Source: an uncultured archaeon
GTDB lineage: Archaea > Asgardarchaeota > Thorarchaeia > Thorarchaeales > Thorarchaeaceae
Direction of reading: 5' to 3'
Length of the DNA stretch: 22,618 nt
Assembly (NCBI GenBank): GCA_964610875.1
Contig: CAZSWP010000047.1
Span: 1 to 22,618 of the forward strand
In this document: piece by piece, positions 3,696-14,187 of the stretch
Layout of the letters: the number at the start of each line of letters is the position of its first letter
How positions within the stretch are numbered: the stretch's first letter is position 1
The notes under the pieces: generated by a model
Database searches by the model: none
What the model was told of the DNA's origin: nothing
Seen by the model: the letters and a program-made list of their open reading frames with translations, nothing else
Position numbers and translations under genes: made by a program

Positions 3696-3810
3696 GTGTC
3701 AAATCTCCAGTTATTCTAAAAACGTGTTAGTTCAAAACTATTTCCAAGGGCATTCAGAACGAGAAATTAATAGTAAAAACTGGTTATCTCCCAATGTGAA
3801 AATCAGATGT

Positions 3811-4017
3811 CTAGGAATCGCGACTCATTATGACTTTTCGAAATCCGATAATAAATACAATGACAATAGGGGTTGAGAGTACCAATAGCCATGGTGTGAT
3901 ATCAGGGCGTGATGCAAACAGAATCAAGGGGCCAGGTGATGCAATCAAAAGCAATACCACTATTGCTATTATTCTGGCTCTCTGTAACATACTCCTCTCA
4001 TAATCTTCAGATGCCAT
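3811..4017 (-). CDS. Small 2-TM membrane protein
   Basis: MASEDYER... with two hydrophobic helices. ATG 4017 is preferred to the TTG at 4032. Confidence 0.65.
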   Translation of the reverse strand: MASEDYERSMLQRARIIAIVVLLLIASPGPLILFASRPDITPWLLVLSTPIVIVFIIGFRKVIMSRDS

Positions 4018-5941: not shown

Positions 5942-7243
5942 TTAACGGGGTGTAACGTCTAGGACAACGCCTACAGCCACAGTCATACCCATGTCACGTA
6001 CTGCGAAACGACCCAGTGGAGGTAGGTCCTTGAATTTCTCTATGACCATTGGCTTCAATGGCACAAGCTTAGCATGCATTGACTCGCCTTTCTTCACGAA
6101 ATCTGGGTTCTCTTCAATGACCTGACCACTGCGCTGGTCGAGCTTCTTGAGAAGCTGGTCAAACCTGCAAGCGACCTGAGCAGTGTGTGCATGAATGACT
6201 GGGGTGTAACCCACAGTTATTGCGGTTGGGTGCTGAATGACCATGATTTGACCAGTGTAGTCGACTGCGACTGTTGGTGGCTTGTCAGTTGGGCCAGCAA
6301 CGTCACCACGACCAAGGTCTTTTCGCTCAATACCACGGATGTTGAACCCGATATTGTCACCAGGAACGGCCTCTGGTAGAATCTCATGGTGCATCTCGAT
6401 GGACTTGACCTCACCAGTCTTGTTGGGTGGCATGAATGTGACCTTCATTCCGGACTTCATTACACCAGTCTCAACACGACCGACTGGGACTGTACCTACA
6501 CCTTTGATTGAGTAGACATCGTTGATTGGTACACGGAGAGGCTTGTCGATCGGCTTTGGTGGAAGCTCGATCAGATCGAGAGCCTCAAGCAGGCATGGGC
6601 CCTCATACCATGGTGTGATGTCCTTGGTCTGTTCCTTCAAGTTGGCTGCAGATAGTGCAGAGGTTGGAATGAATGGAATCTTATCAACCTTGTAACCAAT
6701 GCTCTTCAGGAAGCCCGAAACTTCGTCCTTGACCTCATTGTATCGGTCTTGGCTGTATTCAACACTCTCATCGTCCATCTTGTTGATTGCAACAATCATT
6801 GATGGAACACCGAGGGTCATTGCCAAGTAAGCATGTTCCTTTGTCTGACCACCAGGGCCAATACCAGCCTCGAACTCACCGCGCTTTGCAGACACAACAA
6901 GTAGTGCAACGTCTGCCTGGGATGCGCCTGTAATCATGTTCTTGATGAAGTCCTTGTGACCTGGGGCATCAATAATTGTGTAGTAATACTTGTCAGTAAG
7001 GAACTTGAAGAAAGCGATGTCAATGGTGAGACCTCTTTCTCTCTCTTCCTTGAGTCTGTCAAGGGCAAATGCCCAAGCCCATGATGGACGTCCGAGCTTT
7101 TCCGCTTCTGCCTTGTGTGCTTGGAATGTCCTTTCATCTACGGCACCGGTCTCGTAGAGCAATCGGCCAGTCATAGTACTTTTACCGTGGTCGACGTGGC
7201 CGATTACGACAAGATTTAGGTGCTCCTTATCCTTTTTGCTCAT
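5942..7243 (-). CDS. tuf: Translation elongation factor 1-alpha (aEF1A)
   Basis: [24 protein letters not shown] and NKMD G-motifs; [17 protein letters not shown]-terminus. Confidence 0.99.
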
Positions 7244-7367
7244 TTTATATTCACCACGTCTATATCTGTAATCAGATATTCCGTCTCACAATCGGCCTGC
7301 GCTCTAAGCGCGGAATTCACCATGTGAGTGGGCGAACACTCCCGAGGTTGATGTTTAAAGCTTTTGG
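7244..7367 (-). promoter_or_regulatory. BRE/TATA promoter and structured ~85-nt 5' leader of EF-1alpha
   Basis: CCAAAAG-CTTTAAA at 7367-7354; hairpins at 7285-7328 and 7262-7279; GTGGTGA SD before the ATG. Confidence 0.7.
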
Positions 7368-7423
7368 CTAGGACGTATTATCCAGTATTTTTTGGTGGTT
7401 TTTGGAACGATTTGACACTAGAA

Positions 7424-7915
7424 TCAGTACTCAAACTCGTGTTTGTCAACAGTGATTTGTTTCTGTGGTGTTTCACCCTTCCAAGGACCACGAATCTCGA
7501 TGAGATTAAGAACATTATAGCCGCGTTGCTTCAGAAATTCGATGATTGTATCATTGTTTGGATGGACCCAGTTGTACACAGTTTCACCACCTAGTTCTTT
7601 CACCAACTCCTCGATTTTTCCATAGAGGCTGGATGCAATACCCATTCGGCGGCTGTCAGGATGTACAAACATCTGTTCAGTCCAAACAACATCACTATCT
7701 ACCCTACAAACAGCGTAACCCACTATTTCTCCATCCAGTTCGGCAATAAAGATTGGATATTCTGCGTCAAGAAACTCCTGGAGTTCTTCTTTTGCAGAGG
7801 CTACATTAGGTTTTTTGGATAGTCCCTTCAGAGAACTTAGAGAAACTCGTAGTTCAGCTATAAGTCTGGCTACAGAGTTAAAATCTCCAATTTGATACTC
7901 ACGAATGATCGTCAT
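7424..7915 (-). CDS. GNAT-family N-acetyltransferase
   Basis: MFVHPDSRRMGIAS motif A; WVHPNN..IEFLKQRGY motif B. Confidence 0.9.
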   Translation of the reverse strand: MTIIREYQIGDFNSVARLIAELRVSLSSLKGLSKKPNVASAKEELQEFLDAEYPIFIAELDGEIVGYAVCRVDSDVVWTEQMFVHPDSRRMGIASSLYGKIEELVKELGGETVYNWVHPNNDTIIEFLKQRGYNVLNLIEIRGPWKGETPQKQITVDKHEFEY

Positions 7916-7988
7916 GATTAGTCCAACATGAAACGGATGGGCATCTTATCATTAATATTTATGATTAGTTGCAAGCGTGTGTAGAAAT

Positions 7989-8525
7989 TCATACACCCAT
8001 CAGATTCCGTGTCCATTCCTTGATTATGTCCCAGTCCCGATAATCTACCTTCTCAGGAGGTTCTTCGTCCTTGGGGACCATTCGTTTGATTAGTGATTTC
8101 ATGATTCGTTTTGTAAAGAAATTCCCTTTCTCAGGGTCAATACGACCACCAAAGAGCCCCGTTGCAATCATCTGGCTATCAGGAAACTCTCTTGCAATAT
8201 CTTCAAGGTAGGTCATCCTGGCGGTTTCACACTGTTCCTTATCAGTTGCAGATAGACATGATACAAATAACGCAACACGCTTCCCTGCAAGAGTACTAGA
8301 ATTGTCCTCTAGGAAATTCTTTGCCTCTTTGGTCCAACGCCCCGCGGCTATTCCGCTTCCGACAATCACCGTTGAGTAGAGGGATAAGTCAGCAGTTTTT
8401 TCCTTCTTCAGATTGATAACATCAACTTCAAACTCAAGATCTTGCAAGACTTTACCAATATATTCAGCAATCTCACCTGCAGAACCATATCGTGTCCCAT
8501 AACAGACAAGAACTCTTTCAGACAT
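7989..8525 (-). CDS. Flavodoxin-domain protein (HemG/Flavodoxin_5-like)
   Basis: VLVCYGTRYGSAGEIAEYI FMN-binding loop, VIVGSGI, FGG, DYRDWDIIKEW. Start placed at MSERVLV (8525). Confidence 0.88.
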   Translation of the reverse strand: MSERVLVCYGTRYGSAGEIAEYIGKVLQDLEFEVDVINLKKEKTADLSLYSTVIVGSGIAAGRWTKEAKNFLEDNSSTLAGKRVALFVSCLSATDKEQCETARMTYLEDIAREFPDSQMIATGLFGGRIDPEKGNFFTKRIMKSLIKRMVPKDEEPPEKVDYRDWDIIKEWTRNLMGV

Positions 8526-8603
8526 GATAATCAATTTGATGAGAACACGTGAGAATATAATCACTGTGCTTGTATTGAATATGAAAAGAAAGAGGATATA
8601 CCA

Positions 8604-9161
8604 TTATTTTGGAAGTATTCCGTATCTTTCAATGAATTCGCGCTTTAGGATATCCATAAGAACAATATCGTATCGCTTACCATTACGATAGGCGGCCTCA
8701 CGTAATCGACCTTGATTTTGAAAGCCAATTTGCTCGTAGAATTTGATAGCATGTTCATTGAATTCAACAACATGCAAATAGATGCTGTGTAGTCCCAATA
8801 CATTGAATGTAAAGTCGAGAAATACAAGCATGGCATCCTTTCCATATCCTTTTCCACGTTCTTCAGGGTCTAGGATGGCAAACATGCCAATTTCGCCATT
8901 GCTACTGACCCATGTAATGTTAGTGAGATCGATAAAACCAACAAAATTCCCAGAAGTCTTATCCTCAATACCGTACGTGAAGATAGTTCTGTTAGTGAAA
9001 GCCTCATTTCTTGAGGTTATGAAATTCTGGATATCTTCTCTGGTGTTAGGAAATGGACTGGGTAAGTACTGTCTGAGTTCGTATTCATTCCATTTCTTGA
9101 AAATTGCATCAGCATCTTCTGCTTCTAGTCTTCTAAGACGTATGGTTCTGCCTTCATACAT
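8604..9161 (-). CDS. RimJ/RimL-family GNAT acetyltransferase
   Basis: IRLRRLE, ERGKGYGKDAM, NEHAIKFYEQIGF..QGRLRE, YDIVLMDILKREF. Confidence 0.92.
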   Translation of the reverse strand: MYEGRTIRLRRLEAEDADAIFKKWNEYELRQYLPSPFPNTREDIQNFITSRNEAFTNRTIFTYGIEDKTSGNFVGFIDLTNITWVSSNGEIGMFAILDPEERGKGYGKDAMLVFLDFTFNVLGLHSIYLHVVEFNEHAIKFYEQIGFQNQGRLREAAYRNGKRYDIVLMDILKREFIERYGILPK

Positions 9162-9264
9162 TGTATTTCATGCATATATACGAAGCACGAGATTTTACTA
9201 TAGTGAATTAGTGGCTGTGTATACTCTCTTACTGAAAATACCATACTGCTCAGGATACTCTGGT

Positions 9265-9912
9265 TCATTCTTCATTGATTTCCTCATTGGATAGTTCCTC
9301 AATCTGTCCTGAAGCCATGTCTGCTCCATCACCAAGCCCAGCCTGTGCCTTCAAGTCTTCAGGAATGAATTGATAGAGAATGATTCCGGCCATAATATTG
9401 ATGATTGCTTGAATCGTATTCAAGAAAAGGTATGCAGCTGAACCAATAATTGCCGCATCAAGTGGAAGGCCGTAAAAGAGTTGTAACAGAAAGATATTGG
9501 TGAAAAACATCCCAGTATCCCTAAAAATGGTGCCAAATATCACAAAGACTAGCACTCTCGATCTCTTTGAGAGATTAAGACGAGTGGAGATGAGTCTTGC
9601 AGAGAGAAGTCCTAAAATGGTAAAGAGTTCGGCAAAGCCCTTGAAGGCGGCACCGATAAAATTTCTGTAGCCAATTGCAACCCACATGGCAGTAATTGCA
9701 ATAATAGAGAACACAAAGCCAAGACCTATGAATATAATGACAATAGGAATACCTGTGGGGTCAAGTGTGAATCTACCAGAAGGATCAATTGGAATATCGG
9801 TCACTCCAGGAATAGGAAATGCTTCCAGAGCAATGACAATGGCAGTGAAGACTGCTAGTAACGCAATGCTCTTTGAGTCCTGCCTGATTCGATGTTTTTC
9901 TAGCCAATCCAT
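9265..9912 (-). CDS. ECF transporter substrate-binding (S) component, substrate unknown
   Basis: SKSIALLAVFTAIVIALE helix 1 with AxxxA, FTLDPTGIP loop, about 6 TM segments, late FLNTIQAIIN; GAGGT SD. Confidence 0.75.
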   Translation of the reverse strand: MDWLEKHRIRQDSKSIALLAVFTAIVIALEAFPIPGVTDIPIDPSGRFTLDPTGIPIVIIFIGLGFVFSIIAITAMWVAIGYRNFIGAAFKGFAELFTILGLLSARLISTRLNLSKRSRVLVFVIFGTIFRDTGMFFTNIFLLQLFYGLPLDAAIIGSAAYLFLNTIQAIINIMAGIILYQFIPEDLKAQAGLGDGADMASGQIEELSNEEINEE

Positions 9913-9924
9913 ATTTTGTGACCT
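9911..9924 (-). promoter_or_regulatory. AGGTCACAAAAT motif overlapping the SD/start of the ECF gene
   Basis: Inverted copy of the repeats at 10460-10485. Confidence 0.4.
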
Positions 9925-10049
9925 CTCATATATCGATTAATTGTCCTGAGGGAAATCAGATTGATTGGTTTTCTTGTAGATTAACGCAAAGACAATCGCC
10001 TGAAAAAGTCACTGGCAGTATGATTGGTATTCGTAAGAAGTAGATACAG

Positions 10050-10084
10050 AAAAAAAGTGCTCACGTTGCCTCTAACACGAGCAC
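10050..10084 (-). terminator. 11-bp hairpin plus U7 terminator closing the micro-ORF unit
   Basis: GUGCUCGUGUU-AGAGGC-AACGUGAGCAC-UUUUUUU on the minus strand (two G-U pairs). Confidence 0.8.
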
Positions 10085-10183
10085 GTCTTCCTTTGACAGG
10101 TCACAACCTTCGCAAGGTCCTTGTGACGTCTTGTGTAAGGTGAGATTATCATTTCTCACCAGATGTTCATGCTTCACCTTCAT
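10061..10183 (-). CDS. Candidate 40-aa micro-protein with CxxC (ORF C)
   Basis: MKVKHEHLVRNDNLTLHKTSQGPCEGCDLSKEDVLVLEAT*; AGGAGG SD at normal spacing; stop inside the terminator stem. Overlaps the alternative ORF D. Confidence 0.4.
   Translation of the reverse strand: MKVKHEHLVRNDNLTLHKTSQGPCEGCDLSKEDVLVLEAT
10072..10152 (-). CDS. Candidate 26-aa basic Cys-tailed peptide (ORF D, alternative frame to ORF C)
   Basis: MIISPYTRRHKDLAKVVTCQRKTCSC*; preceded by GGTGA; stop at the terminator loop. Confidence 0.35.
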   Translation of the reverse strand: MIISPYTRRHKDLAKVVTCQRKTCSC

Positions 10184-10189
10184 CAGGAT

Positions 10190-10288
10190 CTACCTCCTGA
10201 TGTAAGTATAAGCATAAGCTAGAGCATCAGTAGAGCCAGCACGCTTGGTGATTCTGCGCTGGGTCTTGTTGTCCTTAGCTAGAGCCAT
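10190..10288 (-). CDS. 32-aa basic micro-protein (peptide B), paralog of peptide A
   Basis: MALAKDNKTQRRITKRAGSTDALAYAYTYIRR*; strong GAGGTGA SD overlapping the stop of peptide A; synonymous differences from A in the shared motifs. Confidence 0.8.
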   Translation of the reverse strand: MALAKDNKTQRRITKRAGSTDALAYAYTYIRR

Positions 10289-10295
10289 GTTCTTT

Positions 10296-10403
10296 TCACC
10301 TCACAACAGTTCTGAATGCATAAGCAAGAGCATCAGTCTTCTGAGCTTTTGCAGCTTTGTTCTGTGTTCCGTGATTCCGGGTTGTGTTCTTTGCAAACGC
10401 CAT
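10296..10403 (-). CDS. 35-aa basic micro-protein (peptide A)
   Basis: MAFAKNTTRNHGTQNKAAKAQKTDALAYAFRTVVR*; TATA box 33 nt upstream; paralogous to peptide B. Confidence 0.8.
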   Translation of the reverse strand: MAFAKNTTRNHGTQNKAAKAQKTDALAYAFRTVVR

Positions 10404-10435
10404 TGTTGTTCACAATAATTACTACTCAGAAATAG

Positions 10436-10485
10436 TATATAATACGAAGCCACGATATAGGGTCACAAAAATAGGTCACAAATTG
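10436..10485 (-). promoter_or_regulatory. TATA box plus tandem upstream TTTGTGACC repeats
   Basis: TTATATA at 10442-10436; GGTCACAAA direct repeats at 10461 and 10474 (13-bp period). Confidence 0.65.
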
Positions 10486-10515
10486 TTACTAGCTAAACTA
10501 GAAAATATAATGTTT

Positions 10516-11772
10516 CTAAGTCAATTTTAAGTCAAGATTCTCCAAGGGCACCCATCCCTCAACATCTGTTTCAGTCTTCACCCATGCCCAAGCACTCTCT
10601 GTGAACATTATTTCAACTCTGATTCCTTTTTGTACTGGTAATTCATAGGAACTATAGTCACGTAGTGACTTGAAGGAACTAGAACTATCATCTATTTCCT
10701 GCAAGTAATGTTCTGGAACCCATCCTGTGGTACCAGTTGGGTGTTCACACAAAATCCACCCTGAATACTCCGTTCTCCCTCTCTCACCGTGAAGGATATC
10801 ATTTCTTTTCATTACAAGTGGAGGTGTTTCCTCTGGATCATGATTTCTAGTCACTATTGTCATTTTCGTGCCTCCCCGAGATTGCATTTTTTGTGCAATT
10901 ATAACACCGATTATTGTAATCACTCCACCCAGAATTTGGATGATACTTGTACTCTCGCCGAGAATGAGTACTGACATCAATACCCCCCAGACACCAATCA
11001 AGTTGAGAGCAATCTGTACCCGAGAGGCCTCAATATACTTCATTGATTCATAGTATAAGACAAACGCGATGAATGTGTTCACAATTGCAACCCATGTGAC
11101 TGCAAGCCATACGTCACTACTGAGGGAGAGAAGAATAGATGTATCTTCCAGTAGAAATGCAGAGGTCCAGATGAAAGGCACTGCCAATAGAGAACTGTAG
11201 AAAGACACAGACACAGAGTCAATGGTCTTCACAACCATCTTCCCAACAATTCCATTGAGTGCGAAGAGAAGTGTCGAAACTATGATTATGAGATCACCAA
11301 TCAACCGTATTGGACCAATTGAGGATTCTATTGGAGTACCACCAAGGACAATGAGTGAAGCTCCAAGTGTAGCCAAGATAAGGCCACCTACTTTGTCTGC
11401 AGTGATCTTTTCACCAAGTAGAGGGGTAGCTAGGACTACTGCGAACACAGGAGTGAAGTTCAGTAGCAGAAGGGTTTCTCCAGCTGCGGTCAGACTCAGT
11501 CCAATGTATTGTAGTATCTGAGAGAGAAACGGGCCGGTGATACCTGCAAGTAACAAAAGACGAAGGCTTGTCTTTATCTCAGACCTCGTTGCTGTATGTT
11601 TCTTCCGCATCATCAAGAGAGCAAAGAGAAAGGGACATGCAAGTGTATACCGAAGTGCAACAAAGAGAATTGGAGTCAATTGTACGTAGACTATCTTTGC
11701 TATTATCAAGGATGAGGACCAAAAGACAGTAGTGAATATGATACCAACCCATGCAAGTATCTTCTTCTCCAA
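10516..11772 (-). CDS. EamA/DMT-family transporter fused to tandem SH3-like domains
   Basis: About 300 aa of 10-TM EamA repeats, then two GW...GWVP..L SH3-type repeats; internal GGGGAGG SD with in-frame ATG at 10863. Confidence 0.88.
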   Translation of the reverse strand: MEKKILAWVGIIFTTVFWSSSLIIAKIVYVQLTPILFVALRYTLACPFLFALLMMRKKHTATRSEIKTSLRLLLLAGITGPFLSQILQYIGLSLTAAGETLLLLNFTPVFAVVLATPLLGEKITADKVGGLILATLGASLIVLGGTPIESSIGPIRLIGDLIIIVSTLLFALNGIVGKMVVKTIDSVSVSFYSSLLAVPFIWTSAFLLEDTSILLSLSSDVWLAVTWVAIVNTFIAFVLYYESMKYIEASRVQIALNLIGVWGVLMSVLILGESTSIIQILGGVITIIGVIIAQKMQSRGGTKMTIVTRNHDPEETPPLVMKRNDILHGERGRTEYSGWILCEHPTGTTGWVPEHYLQEIDDSSSSFKSLRDYSSYELPVQKGIRVEIMFTESAWAWVKTETDVEGWVPLENLDLKLT

Positions 11773-11782
11773 CCATTCACAC

Positions 11783-12598
11783 CTACAGTAATTTCATTTC
11801 TTCAAAGCACTGCTTTAGCAGGAGATATCCATGATGTATGACTGAGCGATATGCTTTGTTGCTCTTGAAGTCTGAGAGAAACATGTCCCACCCAGATCTA
11901 TAGAATCCAACATAATGTTCAGCAATGTGAGCTCTGTCACTCTCTTTCAGTTCTTTTGCGATCCTTGTTCTATTCCAGGACCATACTTCCAGTGGGTCTT
12001 CGTGCTGTTGTGATAGTAACCGTACCGGTGTCGGGGACACGAGCCAACATATACGCCTGACAAGTGACCAGATATCAAATCCCACACGATCAACTGTACT
12101 CAAAGGTAACCTCTCCAGAACCTCTTCTAATTCTTGCATATTATTTCTATCAATCTCACGAATGACATCTGGAGATGGGGGATTCTCTTGTTTTGGATTT
12201 CCATGGAGAATTTGAACATTTTCAAGTCGTGGGGGAACGTAGATAATTAATTGTTTCAATCTGTTGACATCTACTAGTTGTGTACGAGGCATGTGTAAAT
12301 GCTCAGGTTGGCGTTTGAGAAACTCTTTCTCGAAAGACTCAGATATCTCCAATGCCTGTTCAAATGAAACTTCACTTAGTATCATGGGCGCATCATCCAC
12401 TGTTTTGACGTGGATATCAACATCGCTTAACACAGGAACATAATCAATTGGTGAGTCCCAGGGTTTCACACAGGACCCCTTCATGATCACATAGTCCAAC
12501 TTATTCCCAAATTCTGTCTGAAGAACTGCGTTCCAAGCTTGACCACATGATTCAATGTCTTCTCGAGCACGTGCTTGTAGGGGCTGGAAATCGGGCAT
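11783..12598 (-). CDS. Pol-beta-superfamily nucleotidyltransferase-fold protein
   Basis: VIMKGS...DYVPVLSDVDIHV (GS...DxD motif) followed by a helical C-terminal region. Confidence 0.7.
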   Translation of the reverse strand: MPDFQPLQARAREDIESCGQAWNAVLQTEFGNKLDYVIMKGSCVKPWDSPIDYVPVLSDVDIHVKTVDDAPMILSEVSFEQALEISESFEKEFLKRQPEHLHMPRTQLVDVNRLKQLIIYVPPRLENVQILHGNPKQENPPSPDVIREIDRNNMQELEEVLERLPLSTVDRVGFDIWSLVRRICWLVSPTPVRLLSQQHEDPLEVWSWNRTRIAKELKESDRAHIAEHYVGFYRSGWDMFLSDFKSNKAYRSVIHHGYLLLKQCFEEMKLL

Positions 12599-12637
12599 AT
12601 CTCAGCATGAAAATAACTAGTAGAAATGCTTTTGGCA

Positions 12638-12931
12638 TCAAAAAGAACGCGCATCAGCACCCCATCTGTACTCATCGATAGTGGATTTTTCAAGTACCAG
12701 TCGTGCAAAGTTCCACATGGCCTTCGCCAACAGTGTGTTCTCGATCTCTACCTTCCAGTCGCTCCAAGGAGTATAGAGGTCGACTTTTGGGTCATAATCA
12801 CGAGTCTTTGAACGTACAGTATACTGTCCATCGTTGGTGCGGACGACTTGAATATGGGATATCTCAGTACGGTACTCTGCAGGGATGCCTCTCTCATCAA
12901 TGACATAATCATCAATCTTCGGCTCCCACAT
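12638..12931 (-). CDS. Hypothetical protein (97 aa)
   Basis: Natural-looking composition; GGTGT SD-like sequence; AT-rich promoter-like region upstream. Confidence 0.7.
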   Translation of the reverse strand: MWEPKIDDYVIDERGIPAEYRTEISHIQVVRTNDGQYTVRSKTRDYDPKVDLYTPWSDWKVEIENTLLAKAMWNFARLVLEKSTIDEYRWGADARSF

Positions 12932-13059
12932 AATACACCGTCTCGTCTATTCTTTATATTATCATCTAAAGTAATTGAGTATTATCGAATTTCCCCTTTG
13001 GGTAAAAAATGCTCTGAAAACGAAATATTTGCAAGGGCTGACTCATGCGTTTGAGTAGC

Positions 13060-13734
13060 TTATCTTGCGGAACGTGCGACTCGCTCGCGTTCTTCCTTTC
13101 TGGCCACTGCAAAACTACCAGGGTCGTTCTTGTATGCCAAAAGGAGTTCGTCGACTATACATTCTTCGAATGACTTGGCATTCTTGTGAGCATTTCGGAC
13201 TGCACCCACTGCAAGATATCTCAGCGCAAGGTCAATCCTTCGTTGGGGGGCAACATCTACAGAGCGTGGATATGCCATTCCACCGTATGAGATTCTTGTT
13301 GTTTCCTCTGCAGGAGCTGCGTTCTCAACAGCTGTGACCAGTACCTGAATGGGATTCATGCCAGTACGAAAATCAATCATCTCGAAAGCACGGTTGACCA
13401 CACCGATGATCATGGTCTTTTTGCCGGCATTACGACCAGTTCGGGTCTTCTTGTCCTTTCTACGACCGGCATTCATCAGCTTGTTGACATATCTCTCAAC
13501 TATAGGCACGTTTGATTTCCTGAACCTTCTGTGAGCATGTCTACCAGATGTGTGAGGGATTAAGACTGGCTTCAGAGAGATATAACGAATAAGACTGGGG
13601 TCTTTAATTTCAACTTGGGTGGAGTCCCACTTGCCAAAGAGTAATAGTTCGGGTGGTTCATGTACCATAACTGGCTCCTCAGCAGCTTCCACCTCTTCTT
13701 CGCCCTCAGTTGGAACTTTCTCTTCTTCTGCCAT
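13060..13734 (-). CDS. rps7: 30S ribosomal protein uS7 (archaeal S7 / eukaryotic S5 family)
   Basis: LLFGKW, PHTSGRH...FRKSNVPIVER, NPIQVLVTAVEN, VDVAPQRRIDLALR, ERERVARSAR. ATG 13734 lies behind AGGTGG. Confidence 0.98.
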   Translation of the reverse strand: MAEEEKVPTEGEEEVEAAEEPVMVHEPPELLLFGKWDSTQVEIKDPSLIRYISLKPVLIPHTSGRHAHRRFRKSNVPIVERYVNKLMNAGRRKDKKTRTGRNAGKKTMIIGVVNRAFEMIDFRTGMNPIQVLVTAVENAAPAEETTRISYGGMAYPRSVDVAPQRRIDLALRYLAVGAVRNAHKNAKSFEECIVDELLLAYKNDPGSFAVARKEERERVARSAR

Positions 13735-13743
13735 CTCGACCAC

Positions 13744-14187
13744 CTATCTGATTGGTTTCTCCTTCTTACCGTATATCAGCGACTCCAGACCGACACCGTT
13801 CACCTTGACAACCTTCCATCTAACCCCCGGTAAGTCTCCGATTGCGCCTCCTTCTGCACCGCCAATTCCTTCGACGAGTACCTGATCGTGTTCATCAATG
13901 TACTTGAGCCCGCCGTCACCAGGAATGAAAGCAGTGATCTGTTTGCCGTTCTTTGAGAGTTGAATTCTGACACACTTTCGGATAGCAGAGTTTGGCTGTT
14001 TTGACTCGACACCGACCTTTTCAAGGACGATGCCTCGAGCCTGTGGAGCACCCTCTAAGGGGTCACTCTTCTTCCGTAGTTTCAATACTCTTCTCTTATG
14101 GCTGGCTTTCTTCCAGCGGAACTTCTTGCGTTTTGCACGCAATGATCGTGCGGCAAACTCGCCAAGTGGGCTCTTTGAACCTGTCAA
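13744..14187 (-). CDS. rps12: 30S ribosomal protein uS12 (archaeal S12 / eukaryotic S23 family)
   Basis: [32 protein letters not shown]; TTG start with GAGGT SD. Confidence 0.99.

Follow-up and report, generated by a model that had tools for sequence, protein, structure and literature searches.

A multicopy mini-operon of three micro-ORFs in the Thorarchaeaceae

Are the very short open reading frames (ORFs) that stand in tandem on a contig of an uncultured Asgard archaeon genuine genes, and if so, what kind of unit do they form and what could their products do? The DNA analysed here, called the window throughout, is a stretch of 22,618 nucleotides (nt) from a member of the Thorarchaeaceae (contig CAZSWP010000047.1 of assembly GCA_964610875.1, positions 1 to 22,618). 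An initial annotation, made from its letters alone, had singled out two micro-ORFs of a family that it did not recognise, and described them as a two-gene unit with a TATA box, a Shine-Dalgarno sequence (SD) over the first stop codon and a terminator. Both ORFs are present on the minus strand at 10403-10296 (micro-ORF A) and 10288-10190 (micro-ORF B), as are the TATA box (10444-10435) and the SD (10302-10296). The terminator exists as well (10084-10050), but it follows a third ORF, C (10183-10061), and the unit therefore has three genes and not two. This cassette is a Thorarchaeaceae-specific, multicopy and self-contained mini-operon of micro-ORFs A, B and C.

A family-wide cassette of micro-ORFs

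The three micro-ORFs of the window follow each other on the minus strand as one short tricistronic unit with its own promoter and terminator. A encodes 35 amino acids (aa) with a net charge of about +6, B is its 32-aa paralogue and C encodes 40 aa, of which the N-terminal part is variable. To follow the cassette elsewhere, we searched 76 Thorarchaeaceae genomes and 224 genomes of 29 other Asgard families with a profile of 64 A sequences at a cut-off of E <= 0.001. The profile matched 70 of the 76 Thorarchaeaceae genomes, with 1-12 matches per genome, and none of the 224 genomes from the 29 other families of the phylum. This search on Asgard genomes had been proposed by the initial annotation, and it reveals a feature of the whole family. 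All A matches listed are open throughout, over 34-44 codons except for one of 91. A profile of C matched 53 of 60 Thorarchaeaceae genomes. Several A matches lie at contig ends, as expected from a repeated unit that breaks assemblies. The catalogue that we drew up contains 74 cassette entries, 70 after dropping loci fetched twice. The complete ABC form is the commonest, and AB, A, AA, AABC and AB+AB forms also occur. Most catalogued cassettes are self-contained, the downstream gene being convergent in about 60% of them.

Among 1.84 billion representative proteins, 38 clusters match at E <= 0.001; nearly all are stand-alone proteins of 33-37 aa, and the sole name carried by any of them is ‘hypothetical protein’ (one cluster). 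The exact window peptides A, B and C are absent from a collection of 15 billion proteins and are thus unannotated. They match nothing in Pfam or NCBIfam at E <= 10 or in PHROGs or PADLOC at E <= 1, nothing usable in the ESM Atlas, and in a profile search of the PDB they gave chance-level matches only, to N-terminal tails of ribosomal proteins (E 0.04-0.36), so that the family remains as unrecognised as it was at the outset. Neither the window copy nor the copy on contig C3 described below has a match in Rfam at gathering thresholds. Such an operon figures in none of the titles and abstracts found by our literature search.

The genome to which the window belongs (3.75 Mb, 124 contigs, 95% complete) carries four further cassette copies or remnants. 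A second complete cassette is found on contig C3, where it lies downstream of PolX and is convergent with an intron-bearing tRNA-Leu(CAA)-like gene. The third complete cassette (contig C9, 72371-72705; locus L040) has a second type of promoter, its B appears to start with CTG, and it is convergent with a gene for a UbiE-like methyltransferase. Contig C8 has a solo A with a promoter of the window type, its own hairpin terminator and a divergent ScpB-like gene. The last copy (contig C35, 27621-27832; L003/L042) is decayed, with an in-frame TAA after codon 20 of A, a B-like ORF with a TTG start and no C. The window and C3 copies are 100% identical over 239 nt (10257-10495, minus strand), a block that covers the promoter, A and the first two thirds of B. 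Beyond this block, B differs by three synonymous changes, two replacements and an in-frame indel of 6 nt, and pairwise alignment gives a C of identical length and much changed sequence.

A and B are paralogous, as first proposed: each is found by the profile of the other. With these mutual matches, frames open across the family and further copies in its own genome, the pair is far beyond chance. In both, the N-terminus (Met-Ala-hydrophobic-Ala, then Lys or Asn) is conserved, and the middle, rich in N, T, S, K and R, is variable and differs in length by up to 9 residues. A ends with Ser-Thr-x-Ala-Leu/Ile-x-Tyr-Ala-Tyr/Phe, followed by Thr-Val-Val-Arg or Tyr-Arg-Arg, and the alignment of 51 B sequences ends with Ser-Thr-x-Ala-Ile-x3-Tyr-Phe-Arg-Arg. 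The C-terminal 12-14 residues of A and B are conserved right to the stop with a coding-type substitution pattern. The peptides are strongly basic, about 26-37 aa long and devoid of a signal peptide; the same five residues dominate their whole composition, and a hydrophobic face is found in the last 12 or so residues only.

The synonymous differences reported earlier between A and B of the window (GCG/GCT, GCA/GCT, CTT/CTA and GCA/GCT) are all read in the sequence, and the same tendency extends to the family. In ungapped C-terminal alignments, the invariant Ala and Thr codons of A and B have an entropy of 0 bits at positions 1-2 and of 1.3-1.9 bits at position 3; for B residues fixed at positions 1-2, the third-position entropy is 1.7-1.9 bits. 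Independent diverged pairs display an excess of third-position changes (e.g. 4/5/14 and 5/2/12), and in these pairs the ratio of nonsynonymous to synonymous differences (pN/pS) is 0.1-0.37 for A and 0.14-0.3 for B. Since positions 1-2 are fixed, position 3 is free and pN/pS stays at 0.1-0.4, A and B are under purifying selection as peptides and are not a DNA repeat. Codon-position entropy and pN/pS, the latter answering to the dN/dS check suggested beforehand, thus agree with the selection on the peptide that the initial annotation had deduced.

Modelled by AlphaFold2 with an alignment, A is predicted as one helix over residues 9-33. The mean pLDDT (predicted local distance difference test) is 67; residues 21-30 reach about 80, and the first 20 residues 57-60. 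This basic, low-confidence N-terminal part and more confident C-terminal helix would correspond to the basic disordered segment and short C-terminal helix supposed earlier. The prediction of an A+B+C complex with alignments scored 0.10 (mark 0.32), which speaks neither for nor against such a complex.

Signals within and upstream of the cistrons

In practically every member the last Arg codon of A is AGG, with a third-position entropy of 0 bits, and B ends with AGG-AGA or AGG-AGG, while CGN codons are also used for internal Arg of the A/B ORFs. Together with the stop, these terminal Arg codons spell the SD of the next cistron, whose start is typically found 4-7 nt after the stop. In the window, the SD of B, GAGGTGA (10302-10296), is formed by the last codons and stop of A, and the ATG of B lies 7 nt past it. 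Likewise the SD of C, AGGAGGT (10198-10192), is formed by the last codons and stop of B, the end of which reads AGGAGGT-AG (10198-10190), and the ATG of C lies 6 nt past this stop. Judging from codon choice, part of the ‘conserved ends’ of A and B is therefore a signal at the nucleotide level. In 36 of 38 cassettes C starts with ATG. The gap between the stop of B and the start of C is 4-7 nt in 33 cassettes, and in the other 5 the two are flush. Given SDs placed in terminal codons and such close C starts, the ORFs appear to be built for termination-reinitiation coupling, by which A, B and C would be made in a fixed order and ratio.

Between the stop of B and the hairpin, the frame of C is uninterrupted in 37 of the 38 cassettes, versus 0 and 3 of 38 for the other two frames. 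Its variable N-terminal part is almost neutral (pN/pS about 0.4-1.5). The last octapeptide is almost invariant, and just 5′ of the hairpin a Leu followed by Thr/Ser has a coding-type codon pattern. The octapeptide, the stop and the next 4-6 bases constitute a hairpin of up to 14 bp, after which comes a U-rich run. In the window this terminator-like hairpin (10084-10057, minus strand) has a stem of 11 bp (-17 kcal/mol, z -3.0) and is followed by a T7 run (10056-10050) that forms the 3′ end of the terminator; the stop of C (10063-10061) lies in the 3′ arm. Over 37 sequences, 83% of cells pair as against 26-47% when the 3′ arm is slid. Compensatory double changes occupy 18 cells versus 5.7 +/- 2 in shuffles, and 0 of 500 shuffles reach 18; among them, Val GTG changes to GTA along with CAC to TAC after the stop, and Leu changes to Trp (TTG to TGG) along with a synonymous change of GCA to GCC. 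As far as covariation tells, the ‘motif’ at the end of C is for the most part an RNA element, although the ORF itself is maintained.

The folding z averages -4.3 at the terminal hairpin (36 cassettes), whereas means of -0.2 at the A-B and -0.7 at the B-C junction show no structure there; of these segments, only the terminal hairpin is conserved. With RNAalifold, the 3′ parts of A and B and their junctions gave no conserved structure. As to what would characterize an attenuator, the terminator hairpin is overlapped by a candidate leader ORF, namely by the last 7 codons and stop of C, and a search upstream of the hairpin for a conserved alternative (antiterminator) structure found none.

The promoter is conserved better than the coding sequences. 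Among 71 distinct cassettes, which come from many genera, about 55 share an arrangement of the 90 nt upstream of A that we call class 1, with the order AGTCACA-N4-TGTGACT, N7, GTGACCC, N6, GTGGCT, TATA box, CTGAG, TTGTGAA, N4, ATG. In the window, the operator-like region seen in the alignment of the 71 upstream regions corresponds to 10445-10495 (minus strand), where a half-palindrome (10490-10484) is followed by two direct repeats of TGTGACC (10480-10474, 10467-10460) and then by GTGGCTTCG (10453-10445). The TATA box (10435-10444), about 32-41 nt 5′ of the ATG of A, corresponds to a near-invariant TTATATAC column block across genera. The TTGTGAA element (10409-10415), also conserved in this alignment, lies 6-12 nt before the ATG of A, and is probably either the ribosome-binding site (GUGA) of A or another operator half-site. 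An older lineage of paralogues, to which the C9 copy belongs, has the second promoter class, in which a GTTTG...CAAAC palindrome directly adjoins the TATA box.

Within the window's own genome, the composite class-1 arrangement is found at cassette promoters only; a fourth partial match, on contig C17, 5′ of a gene for a bactofilin-like repeat protein, is within chance expectation. The pattern of these promoters indicates a dedicated DNA-binding regulator behind them, and one such transcription factor would switch all cassette copies together. A further claim, that the 9-mer TTTGTGACC brackets the unit, did not hold: with 32 occurrences found genome-wide for 30 expected, it is not enriched, and the copy at 9915 is probably there by chance. 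Elsewhere, some A-B or pre-MFS spacers contain arrays of GTGACC/GGTCAC palindromes, 11-13 nt apart, and a short GC hairpin (L039 3110-3250, L070 4150-4290, L024, L058 and L067), which could be operators or an RNA element.

One candidate for the operator-binding factor was a 167-aa protein without Pfam match, encoded near a cassette at 7 loci and divergent from and directly adjacent to it at 5; on contig C8 (32917-33417, minus strand; L041 3318-3818) its gene diverges from the solo A. It was rejected. The protein is single-copy, present in 62 of 76 Thorarchaeaceae genomes and also in cassette-free Asgard families (e.g. 63 of 68 genomes of one), and it has a predicted tandem winged-helix, ScpB-like fold, most similar to those of the ScpB, MukE, JetB and Nse ‘kite’ subunits of SMC complexes.

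Genomic sites and transporter neighbours

Cassettes occupy sites that are conserved between genera. Four of these sites are represented in the genome studied: PolX-ABC facing an intron-bearing tRNA-Leu(CAA) gene (C3 copy), EamA-ABC (window copy), ABC convergent with the UbiE-like methyltransferase gene, in several genera (C9 copy), and the ScpB-like gene divergent from A(B) (C8 copy). A URO-D-ABC site is found in one genus. A mobile element was considered and rejected, as there are no terminal repeats and the copies stand at orthologous sites across genera; cassettes at sites kept in this way are therefore old paralogues. The A of the window has 100% identity with that of the C3 copy but only 40-44% with the A of cassettes that occupy the orthologous EamA site in other genera, a pattern that indicates homogenisation of the PolX-site and EamA-site copies within genomes, apparently by local gene conversion. 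The tRNA-Leu(CAA)-like gene with intron(s) after the C3 cassette (L001, about 1040-1185) was read by eye, and ARAGORN with and without the intron option finds none there; in other genera, tRNA-Leu(CAA) genes with introns are predicted at this site.

The genes that flank about 70 cassettes, 108 in number, are spread over 104 Pfam families, without any recurrent modifying enzyme in the operon. The only recurrent enzyme neighbour is the UbiE-like methyltransferase (7 of 108), and it is convergent. In the window, a co-directional gene for an EamA (DMT) transporter with a C-terminal SH3-like domain (10516-11772, minus strand; Pfam EamA 9e-40, SH3_2 5e-7) lies 110 nt upstream of the cassette. Its orthologues (59% identity) precede ABC cassettes by 83-110 nt in two other genera, making three genera in all. 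These orthologues are 309-317 aa long, aligned over the transporter part only, and appear to lack the SH3-like domain.

At four loci from different genera, a gene of the MFS_1/MFS_3 type starts 5 nt after the stop of B, exactly at the start site of C; at a fifth locus the same MFS gene lies farther downstream. In another genus, an MFS_1 gene without BLASTP similarity to the first MFS group follows an A-A pair and a 39-codon ORF. This 39-codon ORF (L058, about 3790-3910, minus strand, and L067) has a strong SD and a stop that overlaps the GTG start of MFS_1; it contains a Cys-x-x-Cys, as does C of the window, perhaps by coincidence. Over about 70 cassettes, MFS genes in the place of the third cistron or shortly downstream amount to 7 loci, and EamA genes upstream to 4. 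At least 4 transmembrane segments are predicted for 10 of 20 co-directional downstream genes versus a background of 15%, a figure that is indicative only since related genomes are not independent. Three exporter families are thus associated with the cassette, two unrelated MFS groups and EamA, and no ABC exporter. The export link first suspected from the window finds partial support in the EamA adjacency that recurs in two more genera and in the MFS genes at the third-cistron place, but it does not extend to most copies, which have no exporter nearby.

Around the cassette, the window (5942-14187) presents an accessory block of about 5.8 kb with genes for an uncharacterised 271-aa protein, EamA-SH3, the cassette, a 215-aa membrane protein, a GNAT, a flavodoxin and a second GNAT, flanked by ribosomal protein S7 (13060-13743) and EF-1alpha (5942-7243). 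S7 and EF-1alpha are adjacent in the conserved archaeal cluster of RNA polymerase, S12, S7 and EF genes, so the block may be an insertion between the two. The 215-aa polytopic membrane protein (9265-9912) is encoded co-directionally, 152 nt past the cassette terminator, and has no Pfam match; other genera do not conserve it at their orthologous EamA sites.

What the micro-ORFs may do

The reading to which we incline, tentatively, is that A and B are trans-acting basic micro-proteins under the control of a repressor or activator, in a module linked to efflux. Most copies end in a terminator facing a convergent gene and are nevertheless under selection at syntenic sites, so that A and B would act in trans. 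The MFS gene in the cistron of C and the conserved EamA neighbour would place the module in small-molecule efflux or a stress response. A and B would then stay in the cell and have a conserved partner there, for example the transporter, the regulator or the translation apparatus. Among known systems, sP26 and sP36 of Methanosarcina mazei are similar in being unannotated archaeal proteins of 20-60 aa that have a specific regulator and bind a larger enzyme or transporter-regulator. However, they are single-copy single genes with known partners (glutamine synthetase; GlnK/AmtB), without polycistronic coupling or sequence similarity to the cassette.

Several observations weigh against this reading. 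Only about 11 of the roughly 70 cassettes in the catalogue show the transporter link, and genomes that are related do not count as independent samples. The genome of the window has no MFS orthologue adjacent to a cassette, and a distant relative in it (28% identity) has no cassette upstream. The only recurrent winged-helix neighbour is, by its predicted fold, the ScpB-like housekeeping protein and not the regulator. The stretch was found in two DNA sequencing runs from one microbial-mat study, with no RNA run listed. Finally, conservation right to the stop and lengths of 26-42 codons would fit nascent-peptide regulators equally well.

This last point leads to the alternative that A and B are sensors acting in cis as nascent peptides of the SpeFL, TnaC or Erm-leader type, which would stall the ribosome at or near the stop and gate the third cistron, whether MFS or C. 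Within this scheme, whether transcription terminates or reads through would depend on translation of C into the terminator hairpin, much as in attenuation of the pyrBI type, where a ribosome that follows the polymerase closely could keep the hairpin from forming. SpeFL (speF-potE), TnaC and the Erm/Mef leaders are also short ORFs conserved to the stop and coupled to transporter or efflux genes, with a hydrophilic N-terminal part and an aromatic or Arg-rich C-terminus. SpeFL has about 34 codons, and 26-42 codons is roughly what the ribosomal exit tunnel can contain. The scheme would account for conservation concentrated in the last 12 or so residues and ending exactly at the stop, for an SD of the next cistron inside the last codons, and for the MFS start exactly at the position of C, an arrangement that would suit a coupled leader at the MFS-linked loci. 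It would also explain why a near-neutral C is kept open in 37 of 38 cassettes with its stop in a covarying hairpin, if only the act of translating C matters; the pyrBI leader pyrL is likewise an ORF of about 40 codons, indifferent in sequence and translated into a terminator hairpin. On the other hand, most cassettes end in a terminator and a convergent gene, with nothing to regulate in cis, and yet they are selected. No conserved antiterminator structure was found at the junctions (z values given above), A and B differ by as many as 9 residues in the length of their middle part, and no arrest peptide described in Archaea came up in the titles and abstracts of our literature search. The cassette further departs from known arrest peptides by its three serial ORFs, mostly without a downstream gene to regulate, and its archaeal host. 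From the pyrBI leader it differs in that most downstream genes are convergent, and in that termination in Archaea relies chiefly on oligo-T tracts. We hold this cis-acting alternative to be unlikely overall; its full form, in which nascent chains of A and B stalling at their stops would gate an efflux pump or else a ‘dummy’ ORF that opens the terminator hairpin by being translated, is somewhat less likely still.

The other alternatives take the products or the DNA differently. A and B could be leaderless secreted peptides, signals or antimicrobials, exported by MFS or EamA. Tandem paralogous short cationic ORFs without signal peptide, the AA, AABC and AB+AB arrays of relatives, a tightly controlled promoter, three associated exporter families and the helix modelled at modest confidence for A would all suit such peptides, and psm-alpha of S. 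aureus with its Pmt exporter, aureocin A70 and garvicin KS combine tandem paralogous micro-ORFs of 20-45 codons, no signal peptide, a dedicated regulator and an exporter. But the peptides of the cassette are strongly hydrophilic and basic, do not look like amphipathic, surfactant-like or membrane-active peptides, and share no sequence similarity with those systems. MFS and DMT carriers normally transport small molecules, not peptides of 3.5-4 kDa; they are not ABC exporters, and they accompany a minority of copies. No immunity gene is apparent, the third cistron ends in a terminator hairpin, and the multicopy, near-universal family with its stable motif is unlike patchy, fast-evolving competition factors. 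We therefore regard secretion as improbable. The initial annotation had also thought of precursors modified by the neighbouring GNATs or nucleotidyltransferase (NTase)-like protein and exported by EamA, that is, of ribosomally synthesized and post-translationally modified peptides (RiPPs). It is true that GNATs, the NTase-like protein (no Pfam match) and EamA lie within 3 kb in the window, and that conserved ends around a variable middle would suit a precursor. The GNAT and NTase neighbours are nevertheless not conserved: they are missing at other cassettes, as the scatter of flanking genes over Pfam families and the lack of a recurrent co-directional modifying enzyme attest, the other copies of the same genome adjoin PolX, the convergent methyltransferase and the ScpB-like gene, and the peptides have no Cys/Ser/Thr-rich core typical of known RiPP classes. 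The RiPP reading is largely refuted and may be set aside as very improbable. Equally improbable is that the whole region is a non-coding RNA or regulatory DNA with incidental ORFs. Promoter and 3′ hairpin are indeed conserved at the nucleotide level, the end of C is largely explained by RNA pairing, and the sequencing runs that contain the stretch are of DNA only. This reading is contradicted for A and B by their classic coding signature; besides, all three ORF frames are open across genera and alternative frames closed, Rfam gives no match, and RNAalifold finds no conserved structure in the 3′ parts of A and B or at the junctions.

Beyond what was first noticed, the analysis adds the terminal Arg codons that serve as SD, the hairpin under the end of C, the MFS gene in the place of C and the recurrent adjacency of EamA. 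Were A and B to stall ribosomes after all, they would constitute, to our knowledge, the first arrest-peptide or translation-coupled attenuation cascade in Archaea, present many times per genome in a lineage related to the eukaryotic ancestor.

Asgard archaea have been studied mainly through their large, eukaryote-like proteins, an approach to which genes under annotation cut-offs are invisible. The cassette is such a case, a near-universal, multicopy and tightly regulated unit of a whole Asgard family that is missing from annotations. Its anatomy provides handles on translational coupling, termination and control by transcription factors, for which Asgard archaea have no experimental system. 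Efflux pumps in the place of the third cistron point to a response concerned with stress from, or export of, small molecules. Should the peptides turn out to act on transporters or on the ribosome, they would represent a new class of archaeal micro-protein regulators.

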